From Kiritimatiellota bacterium (GTDB lineage: Bacteria > Verrucomicrobiota > Kiritimatiellia > JAAZAB01), in NCBI GenBank assembly GCA_026398415.1, contig JAPLSY010000084.1, positions 94,709-158,708 on the forward strand: DNA of 64,000 nt. The letters are read 5' to 3'. Below are positions 16,219 through 37,635 of this stretch, piece after piece (position 1 is the stretch's first letter; each line of letters starts with the position of its first letter). The notes beneath the pieces were generated by a model. The model did no database searches and was not told where the DNA came from. It worked only from the letters and a program-made list of their open reading frames with translations. Made by a program: the position numbers and the translations under genes.

Positions 16219-16226
16219 GGCATGAT

Positions 16227-19063: not shown

Positions 19064-19136
19064 GATGAACACCTTGCCCTGCCGCAGGGCAACGGGGCGG
19101 AGCGCAAGCGCCGTGGCGCGGCGGGCACAACCTGCG

Positions 19137-24255: not shown

Positions 24256-24269
24256 TCCACTGGCCGCCG

Positions 24270-25409
24270 TTAGAATTGATGAACGCGGTCTTTGACGGCC
24301 TGGGTTTCCGCAGTCCCCACCCGACCGTGCGCATGCAGGGCGATATTATATAGCACACCGATCTCCAGCAGGGAAATGATCAGGCTGGAGCCGCCCGCGC
24401 TGATGAACGGCAGGGGCAATCCCTTGGTCGGCAGCAGACCGATGACCACCCCGATATTGATGACGGCCTGCAGGGTGATCATCAGGGTGATGCCAAACGC
24501 CAGTATCCGCCCGAACGTATCCGGCGCCCGCAGGCTGATCCGCAAGCCGCAGACAAAAAGCCCGGCAAACATCAGCACCACCGCCAGGGTGGCCGCGGCG
24601 CCCAATTCCTCGCCGATGATGGCGAAAATAAAATCAGTGTGCGCCTCCGGCAAATAGTAGTGCTTCTGGATACTGCCGCCCAGCCCCACGCCCATGGGGC
24701 CGCCGGCAATGAAGGCGTTGATTGCGCTTAGCAGTTGGAAGGAATAGGTCTGCGCATACTGTTCCGGATTTAAAAACGCCACGATCCGGTGCATGCGCAC
24801 GGGATCGCGCATGACGGCCACCGCGAACCCGCAGAAGCCGATGACGGCGAACACGGCCAGATAGGCCGCCCGCGTCCCACCCGCGTACAGGATCGCCAGC
24901 CCCACCACGCCGCAGAGCAGAGCCGTGCCAAAATCGGGCTCGATGAAGACCAGGCCGGCCACCAGCCCAATAATGACCAGCGGCGCTACGGCGCCCCGCC
25001 AGAACTCGCGCACATGCCATTTCTCGCGCGCCAGCCACCACGCCAAACCCAGGATCAGCGAAAACTTGGCCAACTCCGAGGGCTGGACACTGAGCATCCC
25101 GAGATGGAACCAGCGCCGGCTGCCGCCAATCCTGGAGCCGATGCCGGGAACCAGCACCAGCGCCAGGAGAGCAACCGACGCCACGAGGCAAACCAGCGCC
25201 AGGGGACGCCAGCGATGGTAGTCAATTTTGCAGGCCAAACCGCCCACGATCACGGCCATCAGAAGCCACAACGCCTGGCGCTTGACGAAATAATTCGGAT
25301 CATCGTAAAGCGCCACGGCCTTGATGCCACTGGTGCTGGCCAGCATAACGATGCCCAGGGCCAGCAGGAGCAGGACCAGAAGAATTAAAACGGTGGGGGT
25401 TTTCCACAT
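24270..25409 (-). CDS. ftsW: Peptidoglycan glycosyltransferase FtsW (SEDS family)
   Basis: SEDS core motifs (PSEL, GGSSL, 10 TM). It terminates the dcw-type cluster. Confidence 0.8.
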   Translation of the reverse strand: MWKTPTVLILLVLLLLALGIVMLASTSGIKAVALYDDPNYFVKRQALWLLMAVIVGGLACKIDYHRWRPLALVCLVASVALLALVLVPGIGSRIGGSRRWFHLGMLSVQPSELAKFSLILGLAWWLAREKWHVREFWRGAVAPLVIIGLVAGLVFIEPDFGTALLCGVVGLAILYAGGTRAAYLAVFAVIGFCGFAVAVMRDPVRMHRIVAFLNPEQYAQTYSFQLLSAINAFIAGGPMGVGLGGSIQKHYYLPEAHTDFIFAIIGEELGAAATLAVVLMFAGLFVCGLRISLRAPDTFGRILAFGITLMITLQAVINIGVVIGLLPTKGLPLPFISAGGSSLIISLLEIGVLYNIALHAHGRVGTAETQAVKDRVHQF

Positions 25410-25454
25410 TACCCGTCTCGGTCATCCGGGCACACTAAACGCGACCCGATTCGA

Positions 25455-25631
25455 TCATTGCTTCAATTTCCTGATAATGTGCCGTGCGAGATGTTCTTTG
25501 ATTTCGCGGTGACGCGGAATGGGCTGGCAAACGCCTGTCTGGAGATTTTGATACCAATCATGCCGTCCGCCGTGACGAATAAAAACGCAACCTGTCTTTT
25601 CAAGCTCACGAATCAGGTCATTTCTTTTCAT
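25455..25631 (-). CDS. hicA: Type II toxin HicA (YcfA-like mRNA interferase), 58 aa
   Basis: Manual translation of the minus strand gives MKRNDLIRELEKTGCVFIRHGGRHDWYQNLQTGVCQPIPRHREIKEHLARHIIRKLKQ. This matches the HicA pattern (G-x-H...P-x-H-x-E-I). The ORF is below the track's 60-aa cut-off. Its ATG overlaps the hicB stop (ATGA). Confidence 0.65.
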   Translation of the reverse strand: MKRNDLIRELEKTGCVFIRHGGRHDWYQNLQTGVCQPIPRHREIKEHLARHIIRKLKQ

Positions 25632-25819
25632 GCGAGTTGCAATTCCCCAACGTGCTTAACATTGGGTATCGCATTACTTGTGAGATCGGCATAGATATCC
25701 TTGAGATTTTCCTGTAATTCCTCAAAGGTCTCGCCCTGGGTCTGGTAATCCGGATATTCTTCCAGATAACCAAGCCACATGTCATCATCCTGCCAATAAA
25801 CATATCGAATGGAATCCAT
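25628..25819 (-). CDS. hicB: Type II antitoxin HicB-like (UPF0150 family), 63 aa
   Basis: 'YWQDDDMWLGYLEEYPDYQTQGETFEELQENLKD' is the hallmark of the short HicB/UPF0150 fold. It is translationally coupled to hicA. Local GC is ~47% against ~62% for the genome. Confidence 0.6.
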   Translation of the reverse strand: MDSIRYVYWQDDDMWLGYLEEYPDYQTQGETFEELQENLKDIYADLTSNAIPNVKHVGELQLA

Positions 25820-25881
25820 TTTTGTAGAACACTCAATAAATACGCCACAAGGAATTAATTGATTATGACCAAAGGCCCGCT

Positions 25882-26955
25882 TCAGGGAATCTTCAGCCGT
25901 TGCCCCACCTTAACCGTGCGATTGGCGCCAAGCTGATTGAGCTCGACGATTTCATCCACGGTCACCGCATACAGCTTGGCAACGGAATTGATATCCTCGT
26001 TCGGCTGAACAATGTGCGTAATGCCCGAATTGGCGATGGGCTTGGCAGGCACGGGCGCAGTGACCGGTGTCGCCGACGCGGCTGGTGCCGCCGGAGCAGG
26101 CTCTGCCGATGGTGCAGGTGCAGCAGCCGGTGCCGCCGACGCGGCCGGTGCCGCGGCTGGTGTAGCCGGCGCAGGCTCTGCCGATGGCGCGGGCGCAGCA
26201 GCTGGTGCCGCCGGTGCCGCCGGTGCGGCCGGTGCCGCCGGTGCGGCCGGTGCCGCCGGTGCGGCCGCAGAGGCAACCGTGGCTTCCGGAATGATCAGCT
26301 TCTGCCCGACTTTCAATTTGTCGCCCTGAAGTTTATTGGCTTCCCGCAAGGCACTGATTTTCGTGCCGCATTTCTTCGCAATCTTAGAAAGACTGTCGCC
26401 CTTCGCAACCACATACTCCTTACCGGCAACAGGCGCGGACACGGCTTCCGCTGTCGCAGGCGCCAACGACTCCGCCGGTGCGGCCACTTCGGCCGGAGCG
26501 GCAGTCTCAACTGCTTTGGCCTTTGCAGCGTGCTTGGCCGGCGCGGCCGACGCGGCTTTAATTTTCAGGTGTCCGGGCAGCATCAACTTCTGGCCGACGC
26601 GCAATTTATTTGGATCGGACAGCTTGTTCAGATCAGCAATCTCGCTCCGGGAAATTCCATACTGTTTGGCAATGCCCCCGATAGAGTCGCCGGACCGCAC
26701 GACATATTCCGTCGTTTCCGTGGCCTTAGTTAATTCCCTGGACTCGGACTTGGCGACCGGCGCCTTTTCCACTTGTTTCGGCGGCGGGTAATTTACGGCT
26801 TCCTTGGTCGTGGGCGGCATGGGCGGAGTTGTCGCTGCCGGAGGCGGGGTACCCGTTCGGGACGTGGTGCCGCACCCCTGGATAAAGAACAAAGCCCCGA
26901 GGGCGGCGCAGTGCAACATAACAACAACGGTAATTAACAAAGCTGACGTTTTCAT
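25882..26955 (-). CDS. LysM-domain peptidoglycan-binding lipoprotein with Pro/Ala-rich repeats
   Basis: Signal and lipobox (FIQGCG). Three LysM motifs (YVVRSGDSIGGIAKQYGIS..; YVVAKGDSLSKIAKKCGTK..; HIVQPNEDINSVAKLYAVT..) are separated by (PAAPAA)n low-complexity linkers. SD GGAGGAG precedes the Met at 26955. Confidence 0.7.
   Translation of the reverse strand: MKTSALLITVVVMLHCAALGALFFIQGCGTTSRTGTPPPAATTPPMPPTTKEAVNYPPPKQVEKAPVAKSESRELTKATETTEYVVRSGDSIGGIAKQYGISRSEIADLNKLSDPNKLRVGQKLMLPGHLKIKAASAAPAKHAAKAKAVETAAPAEVAAPAESLAPATAEAVSAPVAGKEYVVAKGDSLSKIAKKCGTKISALREANKLQGDKLKVGQKLIIPEATVASAAAPAAPAAPAAPAAPAAPAAPAAAPAPSAEPAPATPAAAPAASAAPAAAPAPSAEPAPAAPAASATPVTAPVPAKPIANSGITHIVQPNEDINSVAKLYAVTVDEIVELNQLGANRTVKVGQRLKIP
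26075..26270. repeat. Coding 6/12-nt tandem repeat (GCCGGTGCCGCCGGTGCGGCC)n encoding a (PAAPAA)n linker
   Basis: Direct reading: near-perfect 12-mer repeats over 26203-26268 and degenerate copies upstream. They lie inside the LysM gene. Confidence 0.8.
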
Positions 26956-26988
26956 TACTCCTCCTATGATGTTCAATGAGACCTGTTG

Positions 26989-27022
26989 TTTCCGCCGGAG
27001 GCGGATCCGCCTCCGGCGGAAA
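26989..27022. promoter_or_regulatory. Perfect 34-bp palindrome (TTTCCGCCGGAGGCG-GATC-CGCCTCCGGCGGAAA) about 35 nt upstream of the LysM gene start and downstream of murD
   Basis: Read directly. No U-tract on either side, so it is an operator or RNA stem rather than a canonical intrinsic terminator. Confidence 0.4.
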
Positions 27023-27117
27023 ATTCCTATGCCTTGAATAAACTACTTGCAAATATCCATCATCGCCCCGGCGGTGTCAAGTTTTTTTTCAACGGCTTTT
27101 TCAGCGGCCACCACAGC

Positions 27118-28464
27118 TTATGACAGCGCGCGAGTCGCGCTTATAAAACATTCGCCGCGTTCCTCAAAACTGCGAAACTGGTCGAAGCTGGCACAGGCGG
27201 GGGAAAGTAAAATCGTATCGCCCGGCCTGGCCTCCCGCCAAGCCTGCGCCACGGCCTGTGCCAGCGTTCCGCCCATCACGCAGGGCACCGTTCCGCGCCA
27301 GGCCGCAGCCATGGCTTCGGCCGCCCGGCCAATCAGGTAAACAGTCGCCACTTTTTCCGCCAGCAGTTCACGGGCCGGCTCATAGGATTCATGCTTGGGT
27401 AGCCCCCCGGCAATCAAACGGATCGGCCGTGGGGTCATGCACAGTGCCGCCAGCATGGCCGCCAGATTCGTGGCCTTGGAATCATTCACAAACCGAATGC
27501 CGCGCACCGCACCGACATTCTGCATGCGATGCGGCAGGGACTGGAAGACGCTCGCGGCCACCTCCAGAAAACGTCCCTCCACGCCGCAGGCCGAGAGCGC
27601 GGCGGCGGCCGCGGCGGCGGTCAGGCCCATGATCGCGTTAGCGAACAGCGTGCCACGTAATTCGATCCTTTCCCGGCCAAGCGAATTGTGAATCGCACCG
27701 GACTGATAAAAGAATTCTGCCGCCGGGCACACGCCCGTAGTCGGGCATACGCCCGCCGCAATCCAGCGATTGGGCGAACCGGCCAGGGAGCGAATCTCCG
27801 GCAGGATGTTCCGGTCCGTAATACCGGTATCCGCCGGCGTCATGCGCGTAAATAAGCGGGACTTGATCTGCCGGTAGGTTTGGAAATCCCCATGGCGGTC
27901 CAGATGATTCGGCGTCACGTTCAGCAAGACCCCCACGTCGGGACGGAAGGCCTGCACGGTTTCCAATTGGAAGGAACTGACTTCCAGCACCAGCCAGTCC
28001 AGTGAACGACGTTCTCCGACCACGGCGGAGACCGGCGGGCCGTAATTCCCGGCAATCGCCACCGAACAACCGGCTTGCGCCAGCGCTTCGGCGCACAGTT
28101 TAACGAGCGTGCTTTTACCATTCGAGCCGCTGATCGCCAACACCCGACAAGCGCAGCGGCTCCAGCCCAGTTCCAGTTCCGAAACCACCGGAATGCCCCG
28201 GGCCATAACGGACTTCACCGTGTCGGATGAGGTCGGAATGCCGGGACTGACAATGGCGATTTCGAAATCGCCCGGCGGCGGCGCCGTAACGCCCAGGCAC
28301 ACCTTGGCGCCCAGGGCCTGCAAAGTGGCAGCACACCGACGCAGGTCTTCCGAATCTCCGCGATCCATGACAACAACCTGCGTGCCCTCAGCCAGCAGGA
28401 GCCGGGCGGCGGCTTCCCCGCTGGCGGCAAGGCCGAGCACGAGGGCTGTTTGGTAATGTTGCAT
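27118..28464 (-). CDS. murD: UDP-N-acetylmuramoylalanine--D-glutamate ligase
   Basis: N-terminal Rossmann-like 'LVLGLAASGEAAARLLLAEGTQVVVMD', the Mur ligase central domain 'GSNGKST', and its position after mraY. Confidence 0.85.
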   Translation of the reverse strand: MQHYQTALVLGLAASGEAAARLLLAEGTQVVVMDRGDSEDLRRCAATLQALGAKVCLGVTAPPPGDFEIAIVSPGIPTSSDTVKSVMARGIPVVSELELGWSRCACRVLAISGSNGKSTLVKLCAEALAQAGCSVAIAGNYGPPVSAVVGERRSLDWLVLEVSSFQLETVQAFRPDVGVLLNVTPNHLDRHGDFQTYRQIKSRLFTRMTPADTGITDRNILPEIRSLAGSPNRWIAAGVCPTTGVCPAAEFFYQSGAIHNSLGRERIELRGTLFANAIMGLTAAAAAAALSACGVEGRFLEVAASVFQSLPHRMQNVGAVRGIRFVNDSKATNLAAMLAALCMTPRPIRLIAGGLPKHESYEPARELLAEKVATVYLIGRAAEAMAAAWRGTVPCVMGGTLAQAVAQAWREARPGDTILLSPACASFDQFRSFEERGECFISATRALS

Positions 28465-28465
28465 A

Positions 28466-28672
28466 TAACTGTTTAGGCTGTAGGCTGAAGACTGTTAGCG
28501 TATTTCAGAAAAACTGACACCCTTTTGCGCAGATCTTCTGGTAGGGCGAATCCGTCGGCTGACGGATGAACTGTCCTTTGTTTCACGGCTCAGCCTGAGG
28601 TTTACCCACCTTTGGCGGCGCCTTAGGCGACCAGGGCTTTGCCCTACCTACAGGCTAACAGCCTACAGCCTG
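28466..28672. repeat. Inverted-repeat-flanked ~200-bp element in the murD-mraY spacer (MITE/REP-like)
   Basis: The left arm AGGCTGTAGGCTG..CTGTTAGC (28473-28499) is the reverse complement of the right arm GCTAACAGCCTACAGCCT (28648-28670). The internal hairpin is CCGTCGGCTGACGG. The same CTACAGCC motif recurs at 61622-61655. Confidence 0.45.
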
Positions 28673-28704
28673 TCCACCTTGTGAATAGTTACGCGACTCA
28701 TAGA

Positions 28705-29829
28705 TCAGCGGATTTTCAGCAGGAGGACACCGATGAGCGCAAAAATGATGGAAATGATCCAGAACCGGATTGTCACTTGCGTTTCGCTCCAAGGCGCTTT
28801 CTTCAACTCGAAGTGATGATGAATCGGGGAACACACAAAAATACGACGGCGTTTCCATTTAAAGAAACCCACCTGCAGGATAACGCTTAAGGCTTCCAGT
28901 ACGAACACACCGCCGACGATAACCAGCGTCAGCTCCTGCTTGATCATCACAGCCACACAGCCAATGGCGCCGCCCAGCGCCAGACTGCCGGTATCACCCA
29001 TAAAAACAAGAGCCGGATGGCAGTTAAACCAGAGGAAGCCGAGGCAGGCGCCCAGCATGCATCCGCAGAAGACGGCCAACTCACCCGCTTCAGGCACATT
29101 AGGAACCTGCAGGTACGCCGCAAGCACGGCATGTCCGGCCACGTAAGCCATAAGCATGTATGCCAGCGTCACGGAACCGGCACAGCCGATGGCCAGTCCA
29201 TCCAGGCCGTCGGTCAGGTTAACGGCATTGCTGGCGCCGATCACGACCAGGGCCACAAACAGAAAAACGCATGCCAGGCACATTTCCGGAATCAACGGCG
29301 CTTTGAAAAAGGGCACCATCAACTGGCGCACATGATCGCGGGTGGCCGGCAGGACCAGCAGAACCCCTGTAAGGAGCACCACCCAGAGCGCCTGTAACAG
29401 CAGCTTGGTCCGGGCGCGCAATCCTTTCGAATCCCGCTTAACCGTCTTGATATAGTCGTCGGCAAACCCGATGGCGCCCATCGCGCACAAGGTCAGCAGG
29501 GCCAGCCAGAGAATGGCGCTGGTAAGCACGGCCCAGAGCAGGCAGGCGCCAACGATTGACAGGATAATAAGCAGGCCGCCCATGGTTGGGGTATTTTTTT
29601 TCTTTTCGCCGCGCAGGGTATCGAGTGCGGGCAGGTCTTCCTTATAGCGGTCACAGCCACAATAGTGGTCGCCGCCGCACAGGCGCGTCAGCCGGCGGAT
29701 GACCCAGGGTCCCAACACCAGGCTGATCAGGAACGCCGTGCCGGCGCCGGCCACAATCCGGACAGTAATGTATTGAAAAACGCGGAAATAGGAAATGTCG
29801 TCCGAAAGTAAATGGAGGTAATAAAGCAT
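28705..29829 (-). CDS. mraY: Phospho-N-acetylmuramoyl-pentapeptide transferase
   Basis: MraY signatures (KxxTPTMGG, DDxxD-like cytoplasmic loops, HHHFE, 10 TM). Confidence 0.85.
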   Translation of the reverse strand: MLYYLHLLSDDISYFRVFQYITVRIVAGAGTAFLISLVLGPWVIRRLTRLCGGDHYCGCDRYKEDLPALDTLRGEKKKNTPTMGGLLIILSIVGACLLWAVLTSAILWLALLTLCAMGAIGFADDYIKTVKRDSKGLRARTKLLLQALWVVLLTGVLLVLPATRDHVRQLMVPFFKAPLIPEMCLACVFLFVALVVIGASNAVNLTDGLDGLAIGCAGSVTLAYMLMAYVAGHAVLAAYLQVPNVPEAGELAVFCGCMLGACLGFLWFNCHPALVFMGDTGSLALGGAIGCVAVMIKQELTLVIVGGVFVLEALSVILQVGFFKWKRRRIFVCSPIHHHFELKKAPWSETQVTIRFWIISIIFALIGVLLLKIR

Positions 29830-30011
29830 AACTATCTTAATATTAAACCGTTATACGATTGACGGTCTTCATTCATTTGGTGTAAGAATGACTATTCGAA
29901 CACCCAATATCCAACAAGGAATGGCCAATTTCCAAATGAATGAGTCTGTATTCCGTTGGGTATTTGGGTGTTGAGTGTTGGTTATTGGATATTCAACTGC
30001 TCTTTTTTGAT

Positions 30012-31406
30012 TCAAAGCACCCGTTCCTTCCACAACGCCAGTACCTTTTCCAAATGCTGGCCGCGGGAGGCTTTCACCAACACGGCATCGCCGGACTGCA
30101 GGCAGCGGCCCAGGACTTCGGCCGCCGCGGCATGGTCGTCACAGGGAAACACGCGCGCCGCGCTCACGCCGGCGTTCACGGCTGCGCGGGCGATAACCGC
30201 CCCCAGCGAACCGACCGTTATAATACCAGTCCATGGTCCCGGCGCAAGCGACTTCCCTAAGTCCCGGTGCCACTGTTCTTCCGAAGGCCCCAATTCCAGC
30301 ATACCCGCCAGCACCAACCAGCGCCCTCCCGTAACCGGCAATTCCGCGAGCGGTAATTCCGCAAAGGTCCGCAAGGCGGCGACCATGCTCACGGGATTGG
30401 CGTTATAGGCATCATTAATAATAGTCACACCGGCCACGACCTGCCGTTCCCAGCGCATGGGCGGGGAACGATATTGCTCCAGCGCGGCCCGGATTTCCTC
30501 CCAGGCCAAACCATGCGCGCGGCCCACGGCCGCGGCAAACAGGGCATTGGCCGCGTGGTGCGCGCCCGGCAGGGGCGCCTGCAGGCGACAGATTTCGCCC
30601 GTCGCGCGTTCGCGGATTTCCATTTGGCCCTGCGCATCCGGAGGAAAACCTGTATAATCTGCCTTGCCGCTCAACGCCAGGGTAATGACCCGGTCCGGGG
30701 CGGCGGCGCGCAAAATTTCAAAATATGGTTCATCGCAACGCAGGACCGCCACACCCCCGGCAGGCAGGCTCTTGAGCAATGTGCTCTTCTCGGCGACAAT
30801 CGCCTCCACGGACTTAAAAAATTCCAGGTGCACCGGGCCAATGGTCGTTACCAGGCCCCAATCGGGCTGGAGCATGCGGCAGAGCGGCGCCAGTTCCCCC
30901 GGATGGTTCGTGCCAAGCTCGAAGACGCCGACACGGTCTTCCGTTTCCATCGCCAGCATGCTCAACGGCAAGCCTATCTCGTTGTTCCAGTTGCCCCGCG
31001 TGCGGGCAACCCTCAGGCGCTGCGCCAGGACATCGGCCACCATTTCTTTTACCGTGGTCTTACCGACACTGCCTGTGACGGCCACGATTGCAACCTGGTT
31101 CCGGCGGCGGTAATTAGCGGCCATATCCCGCAGAGCCTGCGCGGTATCCGGTACGCGCAACAAAGGATGGTCCTCACACAGCTTGACACCCGTATTTTCA
31201 CTGATCACGGCGCCGACCGCGCCCTGCGCAAAGGCCTCGCCGATAAAGCGGTGCCCATCGTATAATGGCCCGCGCAAAGCCACGAACAGGGCGCCACGGC
31301 CCAGCGTACGGCTATCGGTGGACACCCCCGCAATGGCGCCGGGCTGGCCAAAGCACCACTTTCCGCCGGTCCATTGCGCCACTTCCCGGGCATCGAAATT
31401 AGGCAT
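30012..31406 (-). CDS. murF: UDP-MurNAc-tripeptide--D-Ala-D-Ala ligase
   Basis: 'ALRGPLYDGHRFIGEAFAQGAVGAVI' and the Mur ligase 'GSVGKTT'. The start is trimmed to the Met that overlaps the murE stop by 8 nt. Confidence 0.85.
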   Translation of the reverse strand: MPNFDAREVAQWTGGKWCFGQPGAIAGVSTDSRTLGRGALFVALRGPLYDGHRFIGEAFAQGAVGAVISENTGVKLCEDHPLLRVPDTAQALRDMAANYRRRNQVAIVAVTGSVGKTTVKEMVADVLAQRLRVARTRGNWNNEIGLPLSMLAMETEDRVGVFELGTNHPGELAPLCRMLQPDWGLVTTIGPVHLEFFKSVEAIVAEKSTLLKSLPAGGVAVLRCDEPYFEILRAAAPDRVITLALSGKADYTGFPPDAQGQMEIRERATGEICRLQAPLPGAHHAANALFAAAVGRAHGLAWEEIRAALEQYRSPPMRWERQVVAGVTIINDAYNANPVSMVAALRTFAELPLAELPVTGGRWLVLAGMLELGPSEEQWHRDLGKSLAPGPWTGIITVGSLGAVIARAAVNAGVSAARVFPCDDHAAAAEVLGRCLQSGDAVLVKASRGQHLEKVLALWKERVL

Positions 31407-32874
31407 GACTGATTCCCAGACTTTCCCGCACGACCTGCCGGTCGTCAAAGGGGATAACGGTATTGGCAAACTCCTGGTAGTTTTCATGGCCCTTGCCGGC
31501 GATCAGCACCACATCGCCCGCCTCCGCCAGGGAAAGCGCGCGGACGATGGCCTCGTGGCGGTCCTCGACGACTTCCACGTTGTCGCTTTGCCTGCATCCC
31601 GCGCGGATCTGGGCAATGATCTCGATCGGGTTTTCCTTGCGGGGATTATCGGACGTCAGCAGAACATAATCGGCCAGGCGCGTGGCCACGGCGCCCATGA
31701 GCGGCCGCTTTTTACAATCGCGATTACCGCCGCATCCGAAAACCACGATGAGCTTGCCCGGCGTGATCGCGCGCAATGTGGACAGCACGTTATGCAAGGC
31801 ATCCTCCGTATGCGCATAATCCACGAACACCTGGAACCCGCCCGCAATTGAAATCTCCTCCAACCGACCGGGAACGGCCATCATCTGGGACACCACCCGG
31901 GCCGCGCGCGCCAGCGGCACACCGGCGACTCCCGCCGCGGCTAAGGCCGCCAGCGCGTTACTGACATTGTAATGGCCCAGGAGTTTCAGCTTGACCTGGG
32001 CTTCGCCCCAGGGACTATGCACGTCAAAGACACTGCCGGCGGATGTGATCTGCAGATTGACGGCGCGCACGGCGGCTTCCTGGCCGGTGGCATAAGTGAT
32101 CAGGTCAGCCTCGAGCGGCACGTCCTGGACCAACTCACGGCCGTAAGGATCATCCAGGTTGACCACCGCCACCGGTTTTTTCCGACACCGGTTCAAACTC
32201 CGGAATAACAACGTCTTGGCTTGAAAATAATTTTCCTTCGTCGCATGGTAATCGAGGTGATCGTGCGTCAGGTTGGTAAATACGGCAATATCGAAATCAA
32301 CACCCCCGACACGCTTCTGGATCAACGCGTGCGACGAGACCTCCATGACGGCACTCCGGCAACCGACATGCACCATCTGGGCCAGCATATCCTGCAGGTC
32401 AACGGATTCAGGGGTTGTACGGCTGGCCGGAATCGTGCGGTCGCCGATTTCGTAGGCCACCGTACCGATCAGACCAGTGCGGCGGCCGGCATCGGTAAAA
32501 ATATCCCGCAACATAAATGCCGTGGTGGTTTTGCCATTGGTGCCCGTGATGCCAACCACCTGCAGACTAGCCGAGGGGTTATTATAAAACGCGGCGGCAA
32601 GCTCCGCCATGGCAGCCCGCGGATCGCTGACACGGATAAAGATCGCGGAACCGTGGCTGACCGGGGCGGCCTGGTCCGAGACCACGGCTGCGGCCCCCCG
32701 CGTCAACGCATCCTGGACAAAATGGTTTCCATCCTGGTGTTGGCCAGGCAGGGCAAAGAACATAAACCCCGGTTTGATCTTGCGCGAGTCATACGCCAAA
32801 CCCTTGATATCCGGATCCCCTGACCCGCCGACCGCCAGCGGTTTGATGACTGTGAGCAGTGTGTTTAGTTTCAT
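31399..32874 (-). CDS. murE: UDP-MurNAc-L-Ala-D-Glu--2,6-diaminopimelate ligase
   Basis: 'GITGTNGKTTT' and the DAP-specificity motif 'DNPR'. Confidence 0.85.
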   Translation of the reverse strand: MKLNTLLTVIKPLAVGGSGDPDIKGLAYDSRKIKPGFMFFALPGQHQDGNHFVQDALTRGAAAVVSDQAAPVSHGSAIFIRVSDPRAAMAELAAAFYNNPSASLQVVGITGTNGKTTTAFMLRDIFTDAGRRTGLIGTVAYEIGDRTIPASRTTPESVDLQDMLAQMVHVGCRSAVMEVSSHALIQKRVGGVDFDIAVFTNLTHDHLDYHATKENYFQAKTLLFRSLNRCRKKPVAVVNLDDPYGRELVQDVPLEADLITYATGQEAAVRAVNLQITSAGSVFDVHSPWGEAQVKLKLLGHYNVSNALAALAAAGVAGVPLARAARVVSQMMAVPGRLEEISIAGGFQVFVDYAHTEDALHNVLSTLRAITPGKLIVVFGCGGNRDCKKRPLMGAVATRLADYVLLTSDNPRKENPIEIIAQIRAGCRQSDNVEVVEDRHEAIVRALSLAEAGDVVLIAGKGHENYQEFANTVIPFDDRQVVRESLGISHA

Positions 32875-32899
32875 GATGGTCGCGCTTTTTCTCCGTTCT

Positions 32900-33062
32900 G
32901 AAGGCCCCGAAGCGGGGCAAATTTGCCGTTCTCTCGAACGGCCTCTACAACGATCTGCCTGCCCGAGCTCGGCCAGGGGTGTAGCCGCGGTTCGTTAGAA
33001 CCGCTATGTTTTAAAATTCCTTAGCATTAAATCGGGCCCCGATCCGGATCGGGGCCACCTCA
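32900..33062. other. Structured 200-bp ftsI-murE spacer with three GC-rich hairpins
   Basis: Three hairpins are visible: GCCCCGAAGCGGGGC (~32906), GCGGTTCGTTAGAACCGC (~32985) and GGGCCCCGATCCGGATCGGGGCC (~33039). They lie between genes that are normally overlapping or adjacent. Confidence 0.45.
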
Positions 33063-33077
33063 ATTCACAACTTACAA

Positions 33078-34868
33078 TCAAATTCCAAGGTTCGCATCCG
33101 GCCCGGGCCGACCGGCCACGGCGGCATCGCCCTGGGGTGGACACCTCCACTGGGGCGCAATATCCAGGTACCGCACGGATTGTTCGGCAATTTCCTTGAA
33201 CACCGGCCCGGCCACGTACCCGCCGGTGCGCACATCGTTGCTGGGTTCATCCAAGACCACGATGATCGCGAGCTGAGGATCCTCGGCCGGAATAAATCCC
33301 ATGAAGGAGGACATGTTCAGCGTATCGGAATAGCCACCCGGGATGGCCTTCTGGGCGGTGCCGGTTTTGCCGCCTACGTTATAGCCTTCGACCCGGGCAC
33401 GGGTGCCCGTGCCGCCTTCTTCGGTGACACGGACCAGCAGACTTTTCATGAGCCGAGCCGTATCCGGGCGGATGGGCTGGCTGACGGCTACCGGCACCGA
33501 CTGATATAGCACACGCCCATCCGTGTCCGTAACCTGTTGGATAATGTACGGCTTCATACGCACCCCATCGTTGGCAATGGCACAGAGCACCCCCAGCATT
33601 TGCAAAGCGGTAACCGCCACTTCATGGCCGATGGCAATCCGCGTCGTCGAAATGGCGGTCCATTTCGAGACGGGATACAGCAAGCCGGTCTCCTCGCCCG
33701 GCAATTCGATGCCGGTGCATTCGCCAATGCCAAATTGCTTTAAGTAGGCATATAGGCGCGCATTGCCCAGGAGCACGGCGATTTTGGCCGCGCCGATATT
33801 GCTGGATTTTTTGATGATATCGGCCACTGAAAGATTGCCATAGGGATGGAAATCGTGTAAGGGACGCCGCTGGTAAAACCAGGTGCCGTTTTCACAATCG
33901 AATATCTGGGCGGGCGTCACCAGTTTTTCATTCAGGGCAGCCGCCACGACGGTGACCTTGAACGTGGACCCCGGCTCGTAATTGTTGGCAATACAGCGAT
34001 TGCGCATGGCATCCGGCGCCGTCGCCCGAAACGCACGCGGATCGAAAGTTGGGATATTGGCCATCGCCAGGATTTCGCCCGTGCGCACGCGCTCGACGAT
34101 CGCCCAGGCCGCCGTAGCCCGCTGTTCGCGCACGGCAGTTTCCAACGCGCGCTCGACGATATACTGCACATACTGATCGATCGTCAGCGTGACATTGGCG
34201 CCGGGGCACGACTTTATTTCCAGCAGGCGGCGGTCGTACAGTTCGCGGCGGTGGCCGTCCCGCTCACTGACCAGCAACCCCGGCACACCCCGCAGATAAC
34301 GGTCCCAGCGCTGTTCGATCCCGGCGCAGCCGTTACGCTCCGGTTCCAAGTTGACGTACCCGAGCACATGACACAGGCTGGCGCCGCGCGGATACGAGCG
34401 CATCATGATGTCCTGCAGGAACACGCCGGGCAATTTCGCGCGCAACAGGGCCTCGGCCTGATCGTCCTCAAGCACATGGCCGAACCCGGCGACATAGATA
34501 AACTGCCGCTCCGGCCGGTTAATCCGGTCCATGAGCACACGCGGCTCCACATTCAGGATCCGGCCGATGGTTTCGGCCACGGTCTGGACATTGCGGTTGC
34601 TGGCAATTTCGGCAGGACTGGCGCATAATTCTTTTTTTACCAGATCCAGGGCCAGCACGTTACCGTTACGATCCAGGATTTTTCCGCGACCCACCGCCAG
34701 CCTTTCCCGGAACTGACGCATGGCAGTGATCCGGGTGCCGCGATCCACACCGGGACCAAGGTGAAAATGCAGATAGACCAAGCGGGTGCTGACGCCGGCC
34801 AACGCCAGCATCATAAGTATAGCCAAACCGATCAGGCGGTTCCTATATCTCCGTTCAATCATTCGCAA
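33078..34868 (-). CDS. ftsI: Peptidoglycan D,D-transpeptidase FtsI (class B PBP)
   Basis: N-terminal TM and dimerisation domain. Transpeptidase motifs STFK (GSTFKVT), SSN (SSNIG) and KTGT (GKTGTAQ). Confidence 0.85.
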   Translation of the reverse strand: MRMIERRYRNRLIGLAILMMLALAGVSTRLVYLHFHLGPGVDRGTRITAMRQFRERLAVGRGKILDRNGNVLALDLVKKELCASPAEIASNRNVQTVAETIGRILNVEPRVLMDRINRPERQFIYVAGFGHVLEDDQAEALLRAKLPGVFLQDIMMRSYPRGASLCHVLGYVNLEPERNGCAGIEQRWDRYLRGVPGLLVSERDGHRRELYDRRLLEIKSCPGANVTLTIDQYVQYIVERALETAVREQRATAAWAIVERVRTGEILAMANIPTFDPRAFRATAPDAMRNRCIANNYEPGSTFKVTVVAAALNEKLVTPAQIFDCENGTWFYQRRPLHDFHPYGNLSVADIIKKSSNIGAAKIAVLLGNARLYAYLKQFGIGECTGIELPGEETGLLYPVSKWTAISTTRIAIGHEVAVTALQMLGVLCAIANDGVRMKPYIIQQVTDTDGRVLYQSVPVAVSQPIRPDTARLMKSLLVRVTEEGGTGTRARVEGYNVGGKTGTAQKAIPGGYSDTLNMSSFMGFIPAEDPQLAIIVVLDEPSNDVRTGGYVAGPVFKEIAEQSVRYLDIAPQWRCPPQGDAAVAGRPGPDANLGI

Positions 34869-35256
34869 CGGACCTTAGAGGCTGCGAAAGCTGGGCCATC
34901 TGCCGGCTGTAGGGGGGCACATTTTCGGCGGCCAGTTCCGGTTCCTGCAGGCGGACCAGACGGCCTTCTTCCGGCCAAATCATGGCGACACGGTTCTGGG
35001 CAAGCGCCTTTTCGATATTGGACGGCGACTTCAGGGTTTCCCATTTCCACAATTCGTAATCATACCGTTTCTGGATTTCCGCGCGCTGTTGTTCCGAAAA
35101 TTTAATCCGGCTACCCAGGGCCTGGCCGCGCGCATCGAGCCAGACGTACATGAGCATCAGGACCACAACGCCCATCAGTACCGCCGCCCAGGGTAATGCA
35201 ATTACAAAGCCTTCGGTTCTTTTGCGCCGGTTATGCTTGGCCATGATTGAAGTCAA
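34855..35256 (-). CDS. ftsL: Cell division protein FtsL-like (septum formation initiator family)
   Basis: 133 aa with a single TM (FVIALPWAAVLMGVVVLMLMYVW) and a periplasmic coiled-coil. It lies between rsmH and ftsI. Confidence 0.55.
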   Translation of the reverse strand: MTSIMAKHNRRKRTEGFVIALPWAAVLMGVVVLMLMYVWLDARGQALGSRIKFSEQQRAEIQKRYDYELWKWETLKSPSNIEKALAQNRVAMIWPEEGRLVRLQEPELAAENVPPYSRQMAQLSQPLRSVAND

Positions 35257-36172
35257 TCCTTTCGATTACACGCAGTTTGGCTGATCGCGATCTCGGGTTC
35301 CGTAAAATTTCTTCAGCGGAAGCCGTTAACGGCTTCCGCGTAAGCCAGCGCACAAGCGGCTGGGTTCCTTCCCAGCGTTCGCCCCCGGCCGGCAGGGACA
35401 TCCACCGGCCAATGTGCTCCTTCCCTATCCGTTTGACACAGCCGTCTTCCAGGCTGTGATAGCTCAGAACCGCCAGACGGCCCCCCGGTTTCAGCAAGTC
35501 GATGGCCGCCTCCAACCCCCCGGTCAGCGATTCCAACTCGCGGTTAACCGCCATTCGCAACGCCTGGAACGTGCGCGTGGCCGGATGAATCCGCCCATGC
35601 CGCGCCCCCAGTACGCGAACCACCAGGTCCGCAAGGCGCCCGGTGGTCTGGATCGCCCCCTGCCGACGTTCCCGCACAATTGCCCGTGCAATACGGCGCG
35701 CGGACGGCTCATCGCCCAGGGAACGAACGATCCCGGCCAAGGTCTCCTCGTCCAGCGAAGCAACCAAATGGGCGGCCGTTGTCGGCTGGCTCAGGTCCAT
35801 GCGCATGTCCAAGGGCCCGTCCTGCATAAAGCTGAAACCACGTCCGGCCTGGTCCACCTGCATAGACGACATACCCAAATCGAGGAGCACACCGTCCACC
35901 GTCTGAAGACCATGCCGTTCGGCCAGAGATTTCAGATCGGCAAAATTCCCATGTTCAAAGCGACACTGTGCCGACCAGGCCGCCAAAGTTTCATGCGCCG
36001 TCGCGATGGCGCTTGCATCGCGATCCAGCGCCAGCAAAAAGCCGCGCGTACCTAAGCGTTCCAGAATCGCGCGAGCATGCCCCCCACCCCCCACGGTACC
36101 ATCCACGTACGTGCCATCCGGCCGAATCGCCAGCAAGGCCAGGATTTCCTGCACCATGACCGGCGTATGCAT
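35231..36172 (-). CDS. rsmH: 16S rRNA (cytosine1402-N4)-methyltransferase RsmH (MraW)
   Basis: 'HTPVMVQE...YVDGTVGGGGHA' SAM-binding motif and 'LLDLGMSSMQVD'. The start is trimmed to the Met preceding HTPVM. Confidence 0.85.
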   Translation of the reverse strand: MHTPVMVQEILALLAIRPDGTYVDGTVGGGGHARAILERLGTRGFLLALDRDASAIATAHETLAAWSAQCRFEHGNFADLKSLAERHGLQTVDGVLLDLGMSSMQVDQAGRGFSFMQDGPLDMRMDLSQPTTAAHLVASLDEETLAGIVRSLGDEPSARRIARAIVRERRQGAIQTTGRLADLVVRVLGARHGRIHPATRTFQALRMAVNRELESLTGGLEAAIDLLKPGGRLAVLSYHSLEDGCVKRIGKEHIGRWMSLPAGGERWEGTQPLVRWLTRKPLTASAEEILRNPRSRSAKLRVIERIDFNHGQA

Positions 36173-36252
36173 GCGCGCCCTTTCTCCAGGCACCGGCCCG
36201 GCCCGCCGTCGTCCGGCATTAGCCGGGCTATGGCGGGCAGGCCGAAGCATCC

Positions 36253-36447
36253 TCAACGCAACGCAGCCATCGCCGGCATCGCGAGACGCATTTTGACTTT
36301 CATGACCTCAACATCGTAACAGGCCGAACAAAAGCCATGCGAATACACGATCTTCGTCTCGCTGGCTTGAAACGTGTATTGCCAGCCCTGGTCCGTCTTT
36401 TCACGACCGCAAACGCAACATTTCATGATGACTTTGTTACCGTTCAT
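36253..36447 (-). CDS. Small zinc-ribbon protein (64 aa, CxCxxC...CxxC), hypothetical
   Basis: A strong SD (AAGGAGG, 10 nt upstream of the ATG). Cys pairs 'KCCVCG' and 'FCSACY'. GC ~50% is below the genome average. It is inserted between mraZ and rsmH. Confidence 0.4.
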   Translation of the reverse strand: MNGNKVIMKCCVCGREKTDQGWQYTFQASETKIVYSHGFCSACYDVEVMKVKMRLAMPAMAALR

Positions 36448-36843
36448 GACGCGCCAGCCTCCTTTGCCGGGAAGCCATTAAAACCAAAGCATAGCTACAT
36501 AAGTAACGAAAATAATTTGCTGTTTGAAATCAGCGAAACCATCCGGCTGGCTGCGGAAGGCGCCGTTTCCTGCCGGCTCCGCGGTTCCAGACGCAGCCGA
36601 CGCGAATCACCCAAGGGCAGGATCTGCATGGTGTCTCCGCATGCCGCAGGACAGGCGTTCACCACCAGGGCGTGGTTGCCAAAACGCAGCGAACGCGCGG
36701 CCAGACCGGTTGCCGGCAACTGAAACCATTTGTCCGTGCGGCTGGCCCGCAGGGCGCCATTCACTGCCAGAAAACCTGTCATGCTCATAATCGTTCGCTC
36801 CATTTGTTGCGCGGGCCGGCGATCCGGCCGCCGTTATATTATT

Positions 36844-37329
36844 TTAGAAATCCAAATATCGTACAGCTTCGTCCATGGTCGTCGCATCGATGGATTCGGT
36901 AGACTGCTTCCATAATTCCGGATCCCACAATTCGAACCGGTCCCAGGCGCCCACGAGTTTCACCTGGTCGGCAATTCTGGCGCAGGCCAGCAATTCGTCC
37001 TTAATGCGGATGCGGCCCTGGGAATCCCAGGCCACCAAGTCGGAACTGGAGGCCAAAATGCGCGCAAAGAGCCGCGCCTTTTTATCGCCAATACCGATCT
37101 TGCGGAATTTATCCAAGCGCTTCGCCATTTCACGGGCCGGATAAACGTAGAGGCATTTTTCGTTGTTGAGCCCGGGCAGGACATAGAGGCTTTTTGGGGC
37201 GCCCACTTCCGCGCGCCAGATGGCGGGTATGGTGAGGCGTTTTTTGGGATCCAGCGCATGCAGGAAACTGCTGGCAAATCCCCCACTGCCCAGCACCGGT
37301 TCCGGTCGTTCTATGGCATGCTGTTCCAC
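36844..37329 (-). CDS. mraZ: Transcriptional regulator MraZ
   Basis: Duplicated MraZ/SpoVT-AbrB-like halves with DxxxR motifs (LDPKKRLTIP; WDSQGRIRI). SD AAGGGGGAT precedes the start. Confidence 0.85.
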   Translation of the reverse strand: MEQHAIERPEPVLGSGGFASSFLHALDPKKRLTIPAIWRAEVGAPKSLYVLPGLNNEKCLYVYPAREMAKRLDKFRKIGIGDKKARLFARILASSSDLVAWDSQGRIRIKDELLACARIADQVKLVGAWDRFELWDPELWKQSTESIDATTMDEAVRYLDF

Positions 37330-37342
37330 TTATCCCCCTTTG

Positions 37343-37400
37343 TTTGACACTATTTGACACTTTAACCCACCAATTGTCAACAATTATTTTCAATTATTTT
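37343..37400. promoter_or_regulatory. 10-bp-phased direct repeats upstream of mraZ (TTTGACAC x2, then CAATTGTCAA, CAATTATTTT x2) overlapping a TTGACA -35-like hexamer; candidate MraZ operator and P-mra
   Basis: Direct reading. MraZ operators are known to be short direct repeats with helical-turn phasing immediately upstream of mraZ. Confidence 0.4.
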
Positions 37401-37635
37401 TCAGGGTAAATGCAGGCCGACCCAAAGCCCAAAAGGGGTTCACGGCCGAATGCCGGCAGTTTGTTTCTCTGGGTTATCATCAACAGGCTGATAACCGCCT
37501 GTTAATAACATGTCAAAAGACGGCAACAACCCGGATTGACAATAACAAGGGAGCATAATATGCTTCGACCAGCAACCATCGCATCGGGGAGCACTCTTCC
37601 GGGGGATTCATTCGAACGACAGAAGGGAGTGTTAA

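Follow-up and report, generated by a model that had tools for sequence, protein, structure and literature searches.

The closest described counterparts of the locus studied here are the dcw clusters of E. coli and of the Verrucomicrobiota. With the E. coli cluster, and with dcw clusters in general, it shares the gene order from mraZ to ftsW as well as the overlaps rsmH/ftsL/ftsI and murE/murF. Verrucomicrobiota (e.g. V. spinosum; PMC12283558, PMC4803751, PMC1845146) have the same proximal order, with a LysM gene separating murD from ftsW. [quoted passage not shown]

The stretch of DNA analysed here, referred to as the window, is 64 kb of one metagenome-assembled genome contig. With a probability of about 75%, it carries the clade-typical proximal dcw (mra) cluster of Kiritimatiellia, mraZ-orfX-Zn-ribbon-rsmH-ftsL-ftsI-murE-murF-mraY-murD-TM-LysM-ftsW, the spacers of which are selfish insertions. 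Unlike the E. coli cluster, it contains the extra genes orfX, Zn-ribbon and TM-LysM, four junctions of 160-240 nt and a hicBA insertion, and it lacks murG-murC-ddl-ftsQAZ after ftsW. An earlier note on this DNA had described the order mraZ, rsmH, ftsL, ftsI, murE, murF, mraY, murD, ftsW as canonical. Pfam and NCBIfam identities agree with this, ftsL being assigned by position and topology, and all these genes are located on the minus strand, as are the features described below unless stated otherwise. The order is kept in the Kiritimatiellia loci covering the cluster. All comparators are metagenome-assembled genomes (MAGs), among them only about six close relatives (loci of comparators are labelled L); an MraY scan yielded Kiritimatiellia MAGs at 89-92% identity.

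The mraZ gene (36844-37329; PF02381, 51.6 bits) shows 94% amino acid identity in L001 and L002. The start of rsmH (mraW; 35231-36172; PF01795, 345 bits) was set at the conserved ATGCATACGCCGGTCATGG, chosen from the alignment. The ftsL candidate (34855-35244) has no Pfam match; its assignment is based on position, one transmembrane helix plus a coiled coil and tblastn conservation across loci, and it overlaps its two neighbours by 14 nt and 8 nt. Further members are ftsI (33078-34862; PF00905 and PF03717), murE (31399-32874; Mur ligase N, M and C domains), murF (30012-31406; Mur ligase domains), mraY (28705-29829; PF00953 and the MraY signature), murD (27118-28464; MurD-like N, Mur ligase M and C domains) and, as the last cluster gene, ftsW (24270-25409; TIGR02614, 371.7 bits against a cut-off of 337.5), the 25-nt leader of which is 96% identical to L002. 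The start of murF is probably Met28, giving an 8-nt overlap with the murE stop; murF gene calls in relatives are 464-476 aa. Only rsmH/ftsL/ftsI and murE/murF overlap, and the tight packing throughout that characterizes the full-length E. coli cluster was not found. The spacing itself, which had been regarded as unusual, does not stand out statistically: within the window, gaps between dcw genes do not significantly exceed those between other co-directional genes (median 161 vs 32 nt, Mann-Whitney p = 0.20).

Upstream of mraZ, a Pmra-type promoter was detected at 37346-37380. In it, a TTGACA -35 box precedes three direct GTGGG/GTGTC repeats that recur every 10 nt, reading GTGGG-N5-GTGTC-N5-GTGTC. 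A -35 box and, behind it, three GTGGG-type repeats of the same period also lie upstream of mraZ in E. coli and in Pmra in general. The layout of TTGACA plus three GTG(G/T)N units was found upstream of mraZ in at least 15 loci from Kiritimatiellia and Verrucomicrobiota, and the promoter is 86% identical to L005 over 56 nt. The mraZ gene is accordingly preceded by what its sequence predicts to be a canonical MraZ-type promoter and operator.

The region between mraZ and rsmH had been described as a gap of about 590 bp with a small zinc-ribbon gene and counted as fragmentation. The zinc-ribbon gene is indeed there, but the gap measures 671 nt and holds an ORF of 97 aa besides; both ORFs are conserved genes and not spacer. 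The latter, orfX (36495-36788), has a GGAG ribosome-binding site and encodes a protein identical to the NCBI hypothetical protein NT011_10825. Between orfX and its counterpart in L001, differences at the three codon positions number 6/9/31. Its homologues form 52 clusters, and in 1.84 billion proteins 25 clusters at 50% identity match. In other Kiritimatiellia they lie in the corresponding slot, Verrucomicrobiae gave weaker matches, and orfX is kept across the Kiritimatiellia; no match was found in Pfam, NCBIfam or PDB. The 64-aa zinc-ribbon protein (CxxC...CxxC; 36253-36447; AAGGAGG ribosome-binding site; NCBI hypothetical protein NT011_10820) gave a weak match to the HVO_0649 zinc finger (E = 7e-5), which is under the cut-off. 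Substitutions in its gene are biased to the third codon position. Homologues are located in the same slot in L001, L002 and L005 and between murE and murF in L007 and L009, showing that the gene recurs in part of the class. Judged by sequence conservation, orfX, the zinc-ribbon gene and the TM-LysM gene are conserved extra members of the cluster and look functional.

A LysM lipoprotein and hicAB had been noted between murD and ftsW as a further sign of fragmentation. We found LysM and HicA, too, but the lipoprotein assignment is uncertain and hicB precedes hicA. The LysM gene is moreover a conserved gene in that slot and not a spacer: the position is filled in nearly all covering loci of Kiritimatiellia and Verrucomicrobiota, making it a conserved cluster member in both. 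It encodes the membrane-anchored LysM protein TM-LysM (25882-26955; PF01476, three domains). In Chthoniobacterales and Methylacidiphilales there are mostly 1-2 LysM copies, compared to 3 in the window. The N-terminus consists of a hydrophobic helix with a conserved His, followed by QGC; in the alignment His15 is near-invariant and a hydrophobic-His-hydrophobic segment is present in 57 of 62 sequences. This His-containing helix is in no Pfam family.

TM-LysM shares an N-terminal anchor, a Pro/Ala-rich linker and C-terminal peptidoglycan-binding modules with FtsN (SPOR), YneA (TM plus LysM) and DipM/NlpD (LysM plus LytM). Its gene adjoins ftsW, and the protein matches the YneA, DipM, ActS and NlpD models at LysM level. 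It has, however, neither SPOR nor LytM/M23 and reaches the cut-off of no NCBIfam model, all NCBIfam matches being at LysM level only. A role as FtsN-like division activator was considered but is not supported, as there is no SPOR domain or essential periplasmic FtsN motif but LysM domains only, and the likeness consists of topology and the position by ftsW.

Upstream of the LysM gene lies a promoter-like site, TTGACA-17-GATATT (27052-27080), with 10 of 12 consensus matches and an A-tract upstream. Hexamers and spacing are identical in the window, L002 and L108, while the bases between the hexamers differ, and in the alignment conservation covers a block that takes in the A-tract. Like the Pmra-type promoter, this site looks functional. 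The suggestion of internal promoters holds for at least this one site, conserved in three genomes; promoter counts in the spacers are at shuffle expectation.

The hicB-like antitoxin gene (25628-25819, 63 aa) shows a weak match to PF21748 (E = 0.0036, below the cut-off) and is annotated at NCBI as HicB family antitoxin. Its product contains the motif YPDYQTQGETFEELQENL, which is typical of the HicB N-domain; no PDB match and no DNA-binding domain were detected. It overlaps by 4 nt with the hicA toxin gene (25455-25631, 58 aa; PF07927, 41 bits against a cut-off of 27; NCBI: HicA family toxin). A HicA domain above the cut-off, a small HicB/UPF0150-like partner and the 4-nt overlap are shared with HicAB type II toxin-antitoxin systems. 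Differing from these, the antitoxin gene comes first, HicB has only 63 aa and the cassette lies inside a division gene cluster that is conserved in other respects. The 90%-identity cluster of the HicB-like protein includes Verrucomicrobiota and Thermoguttaceae MAGs, and that of hicBA covers three phyla. In L002, the sole close relative covering the junction, hicBA is missing and the blastn block edges lie there. The hicB-hicA pair is a horizontally acquired cassette inserted upstream of ftsW.

As the earlier note had stated, the cluster stops at ftsW without murG, murC, ddl, ftsQ, ftsA or ftsZ, none of which was found in the 64 kb. Pfam searches of the large ORFs of the window detected none of the six (FtsZ was searched by Pfam scan only), and the verrucomicrobial proteins MurG, MurCB, Ddl, FtsQ and FtsA had no tblastn match in the window. 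The next gene is on the opposite strand, as had been observed. It encodes a D-serine dehydratase-like/alanine racemase N-domain protein (23080-24255, plus strand; PF01168 and PF14031), is convergent on ftsW and is the same neighbour as in L002. Whereas Verrucomicrobiota loci go on with ftsW-murG-murCB-ddl-ftsQ-ftsA, those of Kiritimatiellia end at ftsW: MurG, Ddl, FtsQ and FtsA were found in 32-44 Verrucomicrobiota loci and in no Kiritimatiellia locus. Every Kiritimatiellia locus extending beyond ftsW shows the same stop, followed by unrelated genes that differ per lineage, so the cluster end at ftsW holds across the whole class. With regard to the proposed divisome organisation unlike that of model bacteria, it is the gene organisation that differs from E. 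coli. Since the stop is class-wide, and Kiritimatiellota reportedly retain FtsZ and the other dcw genes, it is no sign of an unusual divisome.

The source being a MAG contig, and repeats being able to mislead assemblers, the spacers or the truncation might be attributed to assembly or binning. We regard such an artefact as scarcely credible. Gene order and post-ftsW neighbour are repeated in the independent assemblies L002, L107 and L108, the flanks align cleanly up to the insertions, and the end at ftsW was found in about ten independent Kiritimatiellia assemblies, one of them a 3.1-Mb contig.

The cluster spacers measure 203, 182, 240 and 162 nt. They contain no further annotated CDS, the protein accessions MCX6993607-618 running consecutively. 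Compared with shuffled sequences, the folds of all four non-coding spacers are significantly better (z between -3.3 and -4.7). This, together with the promoter-like site of the LysM gene and an 11-bp GC hairpin directly after the ftsI stop that is followed by the weak U-rich tail GAUUUAAU, would fit conserved cis-regulatory RNAs (attenuators, sRNAs or riboswitch-like leaders) splitting the cluster into separately controlled units. We consider this very unlikely. For three of the four spacers no alignment is possible with relatives whose flanking genes are 83-88% identical, and the blastn blocks to L001 and L002 end exactly at the ftsI-murE, murF-mraY and mraY-murD spacers. At these junctions, relatives carry unrelated sequence of 11-620 nt, in some cases only 11-52 nt; the range is 47-620 nt for ftsI-murE and 11-447 nt for murF-mraY, with 11-34 nt in L105 and L002. 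The three spacers are unconserved in the alignment with relatives, one part of the outcome which the earlier note had named as speaking against its reading of them as regulatory units, and only the promoter block of the murD-LysM spacer is conserved at the same junction. Attenuators or sRNAs, also suggested, are not supported, either: Rfam gave no match at positions 24000-37700 even at E <= 1 (over the whole window, at gathering score, it detected tRNA only and no rRNA), the coding strand of every spacer is free of terminator-like sites, and promoter and terminator counts equal the shuffle expectation.

Instead, the long structured spacers consist of non-coding selfish or dispersed repeats, GC-rich REP-like palindromes and heptamer-arm hairpins, which were inserted recently and in a lineage-specific manner, and junction content varies between close relatives. 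The ftsI-murE spacer (32875-33077; fold -81 kcal/mol, z = -3.3) has the length of about 200 bp given earlier, measured as 203 nt, but it contains five REP-like GC hairpins and not three. These palindromes are located at 33035-33056, 32987-33004, 32958-32977, 32925-32943 and 32904-32918. The spacer does not align to L001 or L002; its units recur between orf64 and rsmH in L001 and between murF and mraY in L107. A perfect 34-nt palindrome, TTTCCGCCGGAGGCGGATCCGCCTCCGGCGGAAA (26989-27022, no strand assigned), also REP-like, lies in the leader of the LysM gene. A diverged copy is present in the window at 51653-51687. L108 carries two copies in the same spacer and another in the orfX-orf64 spacer, L107 has one in the murF-mraY spacer, and the palindrome is missing from L002.

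Spacer palindromes are found at several sites, as expected for REP-like elements: L001, L107 and L108 have them at different junctions, and the window has one at 51653. Each repeat unit has one to two copies, counted within 64 kb of genome; the term dispersed rests mainly on the differing positions in relatives, because copies were countable only in that range. Enterobacterial REP/BIME elements are likewise short GC-rich imperfect palindromes, intergenic only, arrayed and variable between relatives, but the palindrome sequences of the window are unrelated to them. Neither a transposase nor a target-site duplication was found for the spacer repeats, and no RAYT gene was seen.

Two further spacers are occupied by hairpin elements of another type. 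The murF-mraY spacer, previously given as 180 bp, AT-rich and about 38% GC, is an AT-rich element of 182 nt and 36% GC (29830-30011; z = -3.8) with degenerate inverted repeat arms at 29976-29996 and 29895-29916, and has no match in any relative. The mraY-murD spacer (28465-28704) is, as described before, a 240-nt element flanked by inverted repeats, the (AGGCTGT)n arms lying at 28641-28671 and 28475-28499. It is ORF-less and folds with -93 kcal/mol (z = -4.7) into a near-continuous outer stem of about 28 bp. Inverted heptamer arrays of this kind, around unrelated interiors, were found in 24 metagenome contigs.

Intervening sequences (IVS) of Coxiella 23S rRNA combine inverted repeats at their ends with heptamer repeats and an S23p ORF, and RNase III excises them (PMC4990558). 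By analogy, the heptamer-arm hairpins resemble ORF-less 23S rRNA IVS: terminal inverted repeats, a stem of at least 20 bp, tandem heptamers and variable presence are shared with those of Coxiella, Leptospira and Salmonella (PMC4990558). The IVS-type build with an internal ORF occurs at the murF-mraY junction of L001, where a TIGR02436 four-helix-bundle ORF (117 bits) lies between inverted heptamer arrays. The elements of the window differ from IVS by their location, which is between genes for proteins and not in helix 45 of 23S rRNA, and by the lack of an ORF; neither an S23p ORF nor remnant similarity was found in the two.

Structure of any origin can affect the fate of an mRNA, so lack of conservation does not prove lack of effect. 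The insertions, selfish as they are, might by now matter to the cell if their stems, cut by RNase III or blocking 3' exonucleases, segmented the mRNA and set the FtsI/MurE-F/MraY/MurD ratios. Enterobacterial REP hairpins stabilise upstream mRNA. Insertions occur only at junctions without translational coupling, the coupled ones being free of them, and the outer stems of about 20-28 bp are in the range of RNase III in IVS elements (PMC4990558). However, at the corresponding junctions relatives have other elements or none at all, which makes any one pattern of processing dispensable, and we regard such a role as possible but rather doubtful. It overlaps with the explanation by selfish insertion.

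Under selfish insertion, the cluster would be transcribed from Pmra, reading through the hairpins, as none of them has a coding-strand U-tract. In addition to Pmra, the conserved promoter of the LysM gene may contribute to expression of LysM-(hicBA)-ftsW. If the hairpins act on the mRNA, for instance by shielding 3' ends or by having their stems of some 20-28 bp cut by RNase III, this would be a by-product and not a conserved regulatory design.

Variation is marked at the mraY-murD junction, which is a recurrent insertion and breakpoint site. Its length in relatives ranges from about 0 to 2.4 kb, and one relative carries an ORF of 659 aa there. In L105 the junction shows a complete break, and in L001 it is occupied by an RHS toxin cluster of at least 8.7 kb.

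Gene identities were assigned by Pfam and NCBIfam, and the whole dcw cluster is located on the minus strand. The families detected are those of mraZ (36844-37329), rsmH (35231-36172), ftsI (33078-34862), murE (31399-32874), murF (30012-31406), mraY (28705-29829), murD (27118-28464), a gene whose product carries three LysM domains (25882-26955), hicA (25455-25631) and ftsW (24270-25409), the latter being above the TIGR02614 equivalog cut-off. An ORF without family match at 34855-35244 on the same strand is the ftsL candidate, judged by its position, by a single hydrophobic helix preceding a coiled coil and by its conservation in relatives. Computed with refined gene starts (negative values are overlaps), the gaps are 55 nt from mraZ to orfX, 47 nt from there to the zinc-ribbon gene, 80 nt to rsmH, -14 nt to ftsL, -8 nt to ftsI, 203 nt to murE, -8 nt to murF, 182 nt to mraY, 240 nt to murD, 162 nt to the LysM gene, 62 nt to hicB, -4 nt to hicA and 45 nt to ftsW. 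The consecutive NCBI protein accessions MCX6993607 to MCX6993618 match this gene list one-to-one, so the depositor's annotation contains no extra CDS in the spacers.

The description of the cluster in the earlier note was accurate apart from small corrections. Between mraZ and rsmH there is indeed a small zinc-ribbon gene, but it is accompanied by a second gene, orfX. The ftsI-murE spacer is as long as claimed, but contains five hairpins instead of three, and the toxin-antitoxin pair between the LysM gene and ftsW has the order hicB, hicA and not the reverse. A statistically greater length of the dcw gaps was rejected, the excess over the remaining co-directional gaps of the window being non-significant (p = 0.20). 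The proximal half of the cluster matches the dcw family, but it is neither full-length nor tightly packed, which is typical for the class.

As described before, the cluster stops at ftsW and the next gene (23080-24255, plus strand) is convergent. No MurG, MurC, Ddl, FtsQ, FtsA or FtsZ domains were detected by Pfam in the large ORFs of the 64-kb window. For comparison, species-representative genomes were scanned with MraY, all comparators being MAGs. Kiritimatiellia MAGs ranked top (92% for locus L001, 89% for L002), followed by distant Kiritimatiellia and about 55 Verrucomicrobiota loci. In the verrucomicrobial locus L046, MurG, MurCB, Ddl, FtsQ and FtsA directly follow ftsW. Used as tblastn queries against all loci, these proteins gave matches in Verrucomicrobiota exclusively (MurG in 44 loci, Ddl in 33, FtsQ and FtsA in 32 each), and none of the five matched the window or any Kiritimatiellia-like locus. 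Where Kiritimatiellia loci reach beyond ftsW, the genes found there are unrelated and lineage-specific, e.g. AdoHcy hydrolase, DUF697, MotA/ExbB, a methyltransferase or dnaG. Since each lineage has different genes at this place, the end at ftsW is, on the basis of gene content, a trait of the class Kiritimatiellia and not of this genome. Kiritimatiellota are reported to possess FtsZ and other dcw genes (PMC12283558; PMC5148204), and the distal genes must therefore be located elsewhere in the genome. Fragmentation of the dcw cluster has been published for the PVC superphylum (PMC12283558), and both the truncation and the loose packing fit this picture.

The spacers of the cluster are strongly structured, with folding z-values against dinucleotide shuffles of -3.3 (ftsI-murE), -3.8 (murF-mraY), -4.7 (mraY-murD) and -3.6 (murD-LysM). 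The earlier note had related them to internal promoters, attenuators or sRNAs and had called for a comparison among relatives. In this comparison, conservation, the lack of which the earlier note had named as speaking against its proposal, fails for three spacers out of four. When the region was aligned to the close relative L002 by blastn, blocks of 83-86% identity were obtained (37700-33152, 32879-30020, 29829-28711, 28465-25871 and 25434-24270), the breaks between them coinciding exactly with the ftsI-murE spacer, the murF-mraY spacer, the mraY-murD element and hicBA. The ftsI-murE junction measures 203 nt in the window, 618 nt in L001, 52 nt in L002, 132 nt in L105 and 47 nt in L107; the values for murF-mraY are 182, 447, 34, 11 and 150 nt, respectively, and 149 nt in L108. 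Furthermore, Rfam yielded nothing in the cluster either at gathering score or at E <= 1, no spacer contains a terminator-like site on the coding strand, no conserved terminator behind ftsI was detected in L002 or L107, and the numbers of promoters and terminators, in relatives as well, correspond to the shuffle expectation. What stands of the regulatory proposal is at least one conserved promoter-like site upstream of the LysM gene. As the comparison shows, the spacers are lineage-specific and their repeats, judged by their distribution, mobile. Strongly structured spacers in a famous operon, as encountered in genome scans, can thus be recently inserted repeat elements, and one comparison with close relatives settles whether this is so.

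Two kinds of elements fill the spacers, GC-rich palindromes and hairpins with arms of inverted tandem heptamers. The GCGGTTCTAACGAACCGC and GGCCGTTCGAGAGAACGGC units of the ftsI-murE spacer occur in three copies at the zinc ribbon-rsmH junction of L001 and again at the murF-mraY junction of L107. A perfect 34-nt palindrome in the murD-LysM spacer (26989-27022) has copies in L108 (two in the murD-LysM spacer, one between orfX and the zinc-ribbon gene) and one copy in L107 between murF and mraY, and none in L002. A diverged copy (about 85%), seen by blastn only, is present in the window at 51653-51687, in a divergent intergenic region of a glycosyltransferase/radical-SAM gene cluster. Candidate selfish repeats are TTTCCGCCGGAGGCGGATCCGCCTCCGGCGGAAA, hairpins of the GCGGTTCTAACGAACCGC type and the inverted heptamer arrays. 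Within the 64 kb of the genome that were covered, exact or 3-mismatch searches with three hairpin units returned the query copies only. By their distribution, the GC-rich palindromes behave like REP-type dispersed palindromes. The 24-nt perfect palindrome GCGGAAGCCGTTAACGGCTTCCGC (35316-35339), which lies towards the 3' end within rsmH, some 70 nt before ftsL begins, was dropped as an element, no exact copy being found in 110 loci, including the relatives.

The 240-nt mraY-murD element has AGGCTGT-based arms forming a near-continuous outer stem of about 28 bp. Scanning metagenomes for (AGGCTGT)2 followed at a distance of 155-185 nt by (ACAGCCT)2 yielded 24 contigs (L082-L104, 46-72% GC), in which the arrays are often longer and enclose 150-200 nt of unrelated sequence; stop-to-stop ORFs run across this GC-rich DNA. 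In some of these contigs (L090, L094, L097 and L101) there is a further, nested array pair, which is of the AGTCAGA type. The 182-nt AT-rich spacer is of the same design with degenerate arms, and such degenerate arms likewise occur in the mraY-murD spacers of L107 and L108. A complete element is located between murF and mraY of L001 (9554-10000), where an ORF of the TIGR02436 four-helix-bundle family (117 bits) lies between inverted AGTCAGA-type arrays. The same heptamer forms a perfect tandem array, (AGAAGTC) x 5.7, at 16227-16266 of the window, between a histidine kinase gene (14290-16218) and an IMP dehydrogenase gene.

The intervening sequences (IVS) of Coxiella 23S rRNA, which RNase III excises, combine terminal inverted repeats and heptamer repeats with an S23p four-helix-bundle ORF (PMC4990558). 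Our elements resemble them in their inverted heptamer-array arms, and that of L001 also in its four-helix-bundle ORF. However, no remnant of an S23p ORF was found in the 240-nt and 182-nt elements, and both are sited between protein genes; we therefore term them IVS-like and do not count them as IVS members. The hairpins may nonetheless influence mRNA stability or undergo cutting by RNase III.

Regarded as inserted elements, the repeats were found only at junctions without translational coupling. At the mraY-murD junction, the 240 nt of the window compare to 227 nt in L107, 130 nt in L108 and 0-160 nt in more distant Kiritimatiellia. In L001, this junction is filled by at least 8.7 kb of an RHS-repeat polymorphic-toxin cluster (11190-19871), in L002 by 2.4 kb with a 659-aa ORF without family match (11342-13321), and in L105 by unrelated genes, namely UvdE, a 2-thiouracil desulfurase-like gene and a cation-efflux gene (18128-20294). 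Judged by gene order, mraY|murD is a recurrent breakpoint and insertion hotspot. Where translational coupling is absent, the dcw cluster tolerates insertions as small as 180-nt hairpins and as large as an RHS toxin island, and together with the mraY|murD breakpoint these illustrate concretely how the cluster fragments in the PVC group.

The hicBA cassette (25455-25819) is a further insertion. HicA passes the Pfam cut-off. The HicB-like ORF (63 aa) lies upstream of hicA with a 4-nt overlap, shows a weak UPF0150/HicB-like match and a motif typical of the HicB N-domain, and is named HicB family antitoxin by NCBI; a PDB sequence search with it gave nothing meaningful. In L002 the cassette is absent and the distance between the LysM gene and ftsW is 66 nt, the 25-nt ftsW leader still being 96% identical to that of the window. 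The 90%-identity cluster of HicB (n=52) includes MAGs of Verrucomicrobiota and Thermoguttaceae (Planctomycetota), which points to a recently transferred cassette, exchanged horizontally between phyla.

Upstream of mraZ, we detected the putative promoter Pmra (37346-37380), consisting of a TTGACA box followed by GTGGG-N5-GTGTC-N5-GTGTC, a layout common to mraZ upstream regions in loci of both phyla. This corresponds to the known arrangement of MraZ-controlled promoters, as in the MraZ operators of E. coli and Mycoplasma. The promoter-like site upstream of the LysM gene (27052-27080) reads TTGACA-17-GATATT with an upstream A-tract; hexamers and spacing are identical in the window, L002 and L108, with a variable downstream leader and variable bases separating the two hexamers. 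Both sites are probably functional. Transcription would start at Pmra and read through the hairpins, as none of them has a U-tract on the coding strand, and a second promoter would feed LysM-(hicBA)-ftsW. In several relatives, kilobases of foreign genes lie between mraY and the genes from murD onward, or the latter have moved, so that in this clade these downstream genes must be expressible on their own.

The orfX gene, coding for 97 aa, possesses a ribosome-binding site. Compared to L001, its differences are distributed over the codon positions as 6/9/31, and indels comprise whole codons. Homologues form 52 clusters (90-113 aa); at 50% identity there are 25 clusters among 1.84 billion proteins, nearly all of them small and aligned from residue 1. 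An HMM of the Kiritimatiellia copies matched in the mraZ-rsmH slot of another Kiritimatiellia-like locus and, more weakly (E 1e-3 to 0.4), in seven Verrucomicrobiota loci. No Pfam, NCBIfam or PDB match was obtained (PDB being searched with the orfX profile), nor did Pfam match the Verrucomicrobiae variants or the L007 zinc ribbon. The AlphaFold2 model based on 19 homologues (pLDDT 54, pTM 0.34) was of too low confidence for a fold search. The zinc-ribbon protein (64 aa) is conserved in L001, L002 and L005 in the same slot. Homologues with the motif KCCxCxR...YSH(G/S)xCxxC are encoded between murE and murF in the more distant Kiritimatiellia L007 (8291-8539) and L009 (8311-8568), indicating a small gene embedded in the cluster at two different positions; a PDB sequence search gave nothing meaningful.

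Nearly all loci that cover the murD-ftsW interval, Verrucomicrobiota included, have an ORF with LysM similarity there. In an alignment of 19 representatives, a conserved hydrophobic helix at the N-terminus contains a near-invariant His and is followed by a linker rich in Pro/Ala and by 1-3 LysM domains. The hydrophobic-His-hydrophobic segment occurs in 57 of 62 ORFs, of which 31 have one, 6 two and 23 three LysM domains. The protein had been described as a lipoprotein. This agrees with the QGC following the helix in Kiritimatiellia, where it may be lipoprotein-processed, but the Chthoniobacterales versions lack the Cys and are extended on the cytoplasmic side by a basic stretch of about 40 aa, so the family is basically bitopic. 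Matches to the MltD, ActS, DipM, YneA and NlpD models are at the LysM level only, none reaching the cut-off. The linker of LysM domains 2 and 3 (26077-26267) consists of tandem DNA repeats (75 nt x 2; 9/18 nt x 7) encoding a (PAA)n low-complexity stretch with 78% GC, the length of which likely varies between strains. LysM-containing genes are marked in the murD-ftsW neighbourhood in the legend of Fig. 7B of PMC4803751; the literature searched contained no discussion of the gene. For V. spinosum, the locus tags of two independent series both leave a slot for one additional gene between murD and ftsW. The tag in this slot, VSP_RS19445, appears among the essential genes of the TraDIS supplement; from its position we infer that it is the LysM gene, and its essentiality may reflect polar effects. 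Judged by their conservation, the LysM gene, orfX and the zinc-ribbon gene are probably functional. We tentatively suggest, as a possibility on the less likely side, that the LysM protein, which resembles FtsN in topology, is a lineage-specific divisome component acting as peptidoglycan-binding partner or activator of FtsW-FtsI, with orfX and the zinc-ribbon protein as possible further partners.

The literature searched, which excluded Pilhofer et al. 2008 on PVC dcw clusters, a paper that may show the extra ORFs, does not seem to describe that Kiritimatiellia clusters consistently end at ftsW, that mraY|murD is a hotspot, that REP-like and IVS-like elements have invaded the cluster, or that orfX and the TM-His-LysM gene are conserved. 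Candidates for new division genes are the membrane-anchored LysM gene beside ftsW in two phyla and the small gene between mraZ and rsmH. Both are testable with the genetic tools now existing for Verrucomicrobium spinosum, the LysM protein being most worth an experiment.

Beyond the cluster, the window contains a conserved 473-aa ORF without family match (21444-22865, 82% identical in L002), after which come genes encoding ABC transporter components of the MlaE and MlaF type (18554-21428), possibly forming an outer-membrane lipid transport operon adjoining the dcw cluster. FG-GAP repeats are present in two very large proteins of 1459 and 1260 aa (2682-7061 and 8291-12073), in one of the two together with a Laminin-G domain; between their genes lie a LacI-type regulator gene and one for tRNA-Leu.
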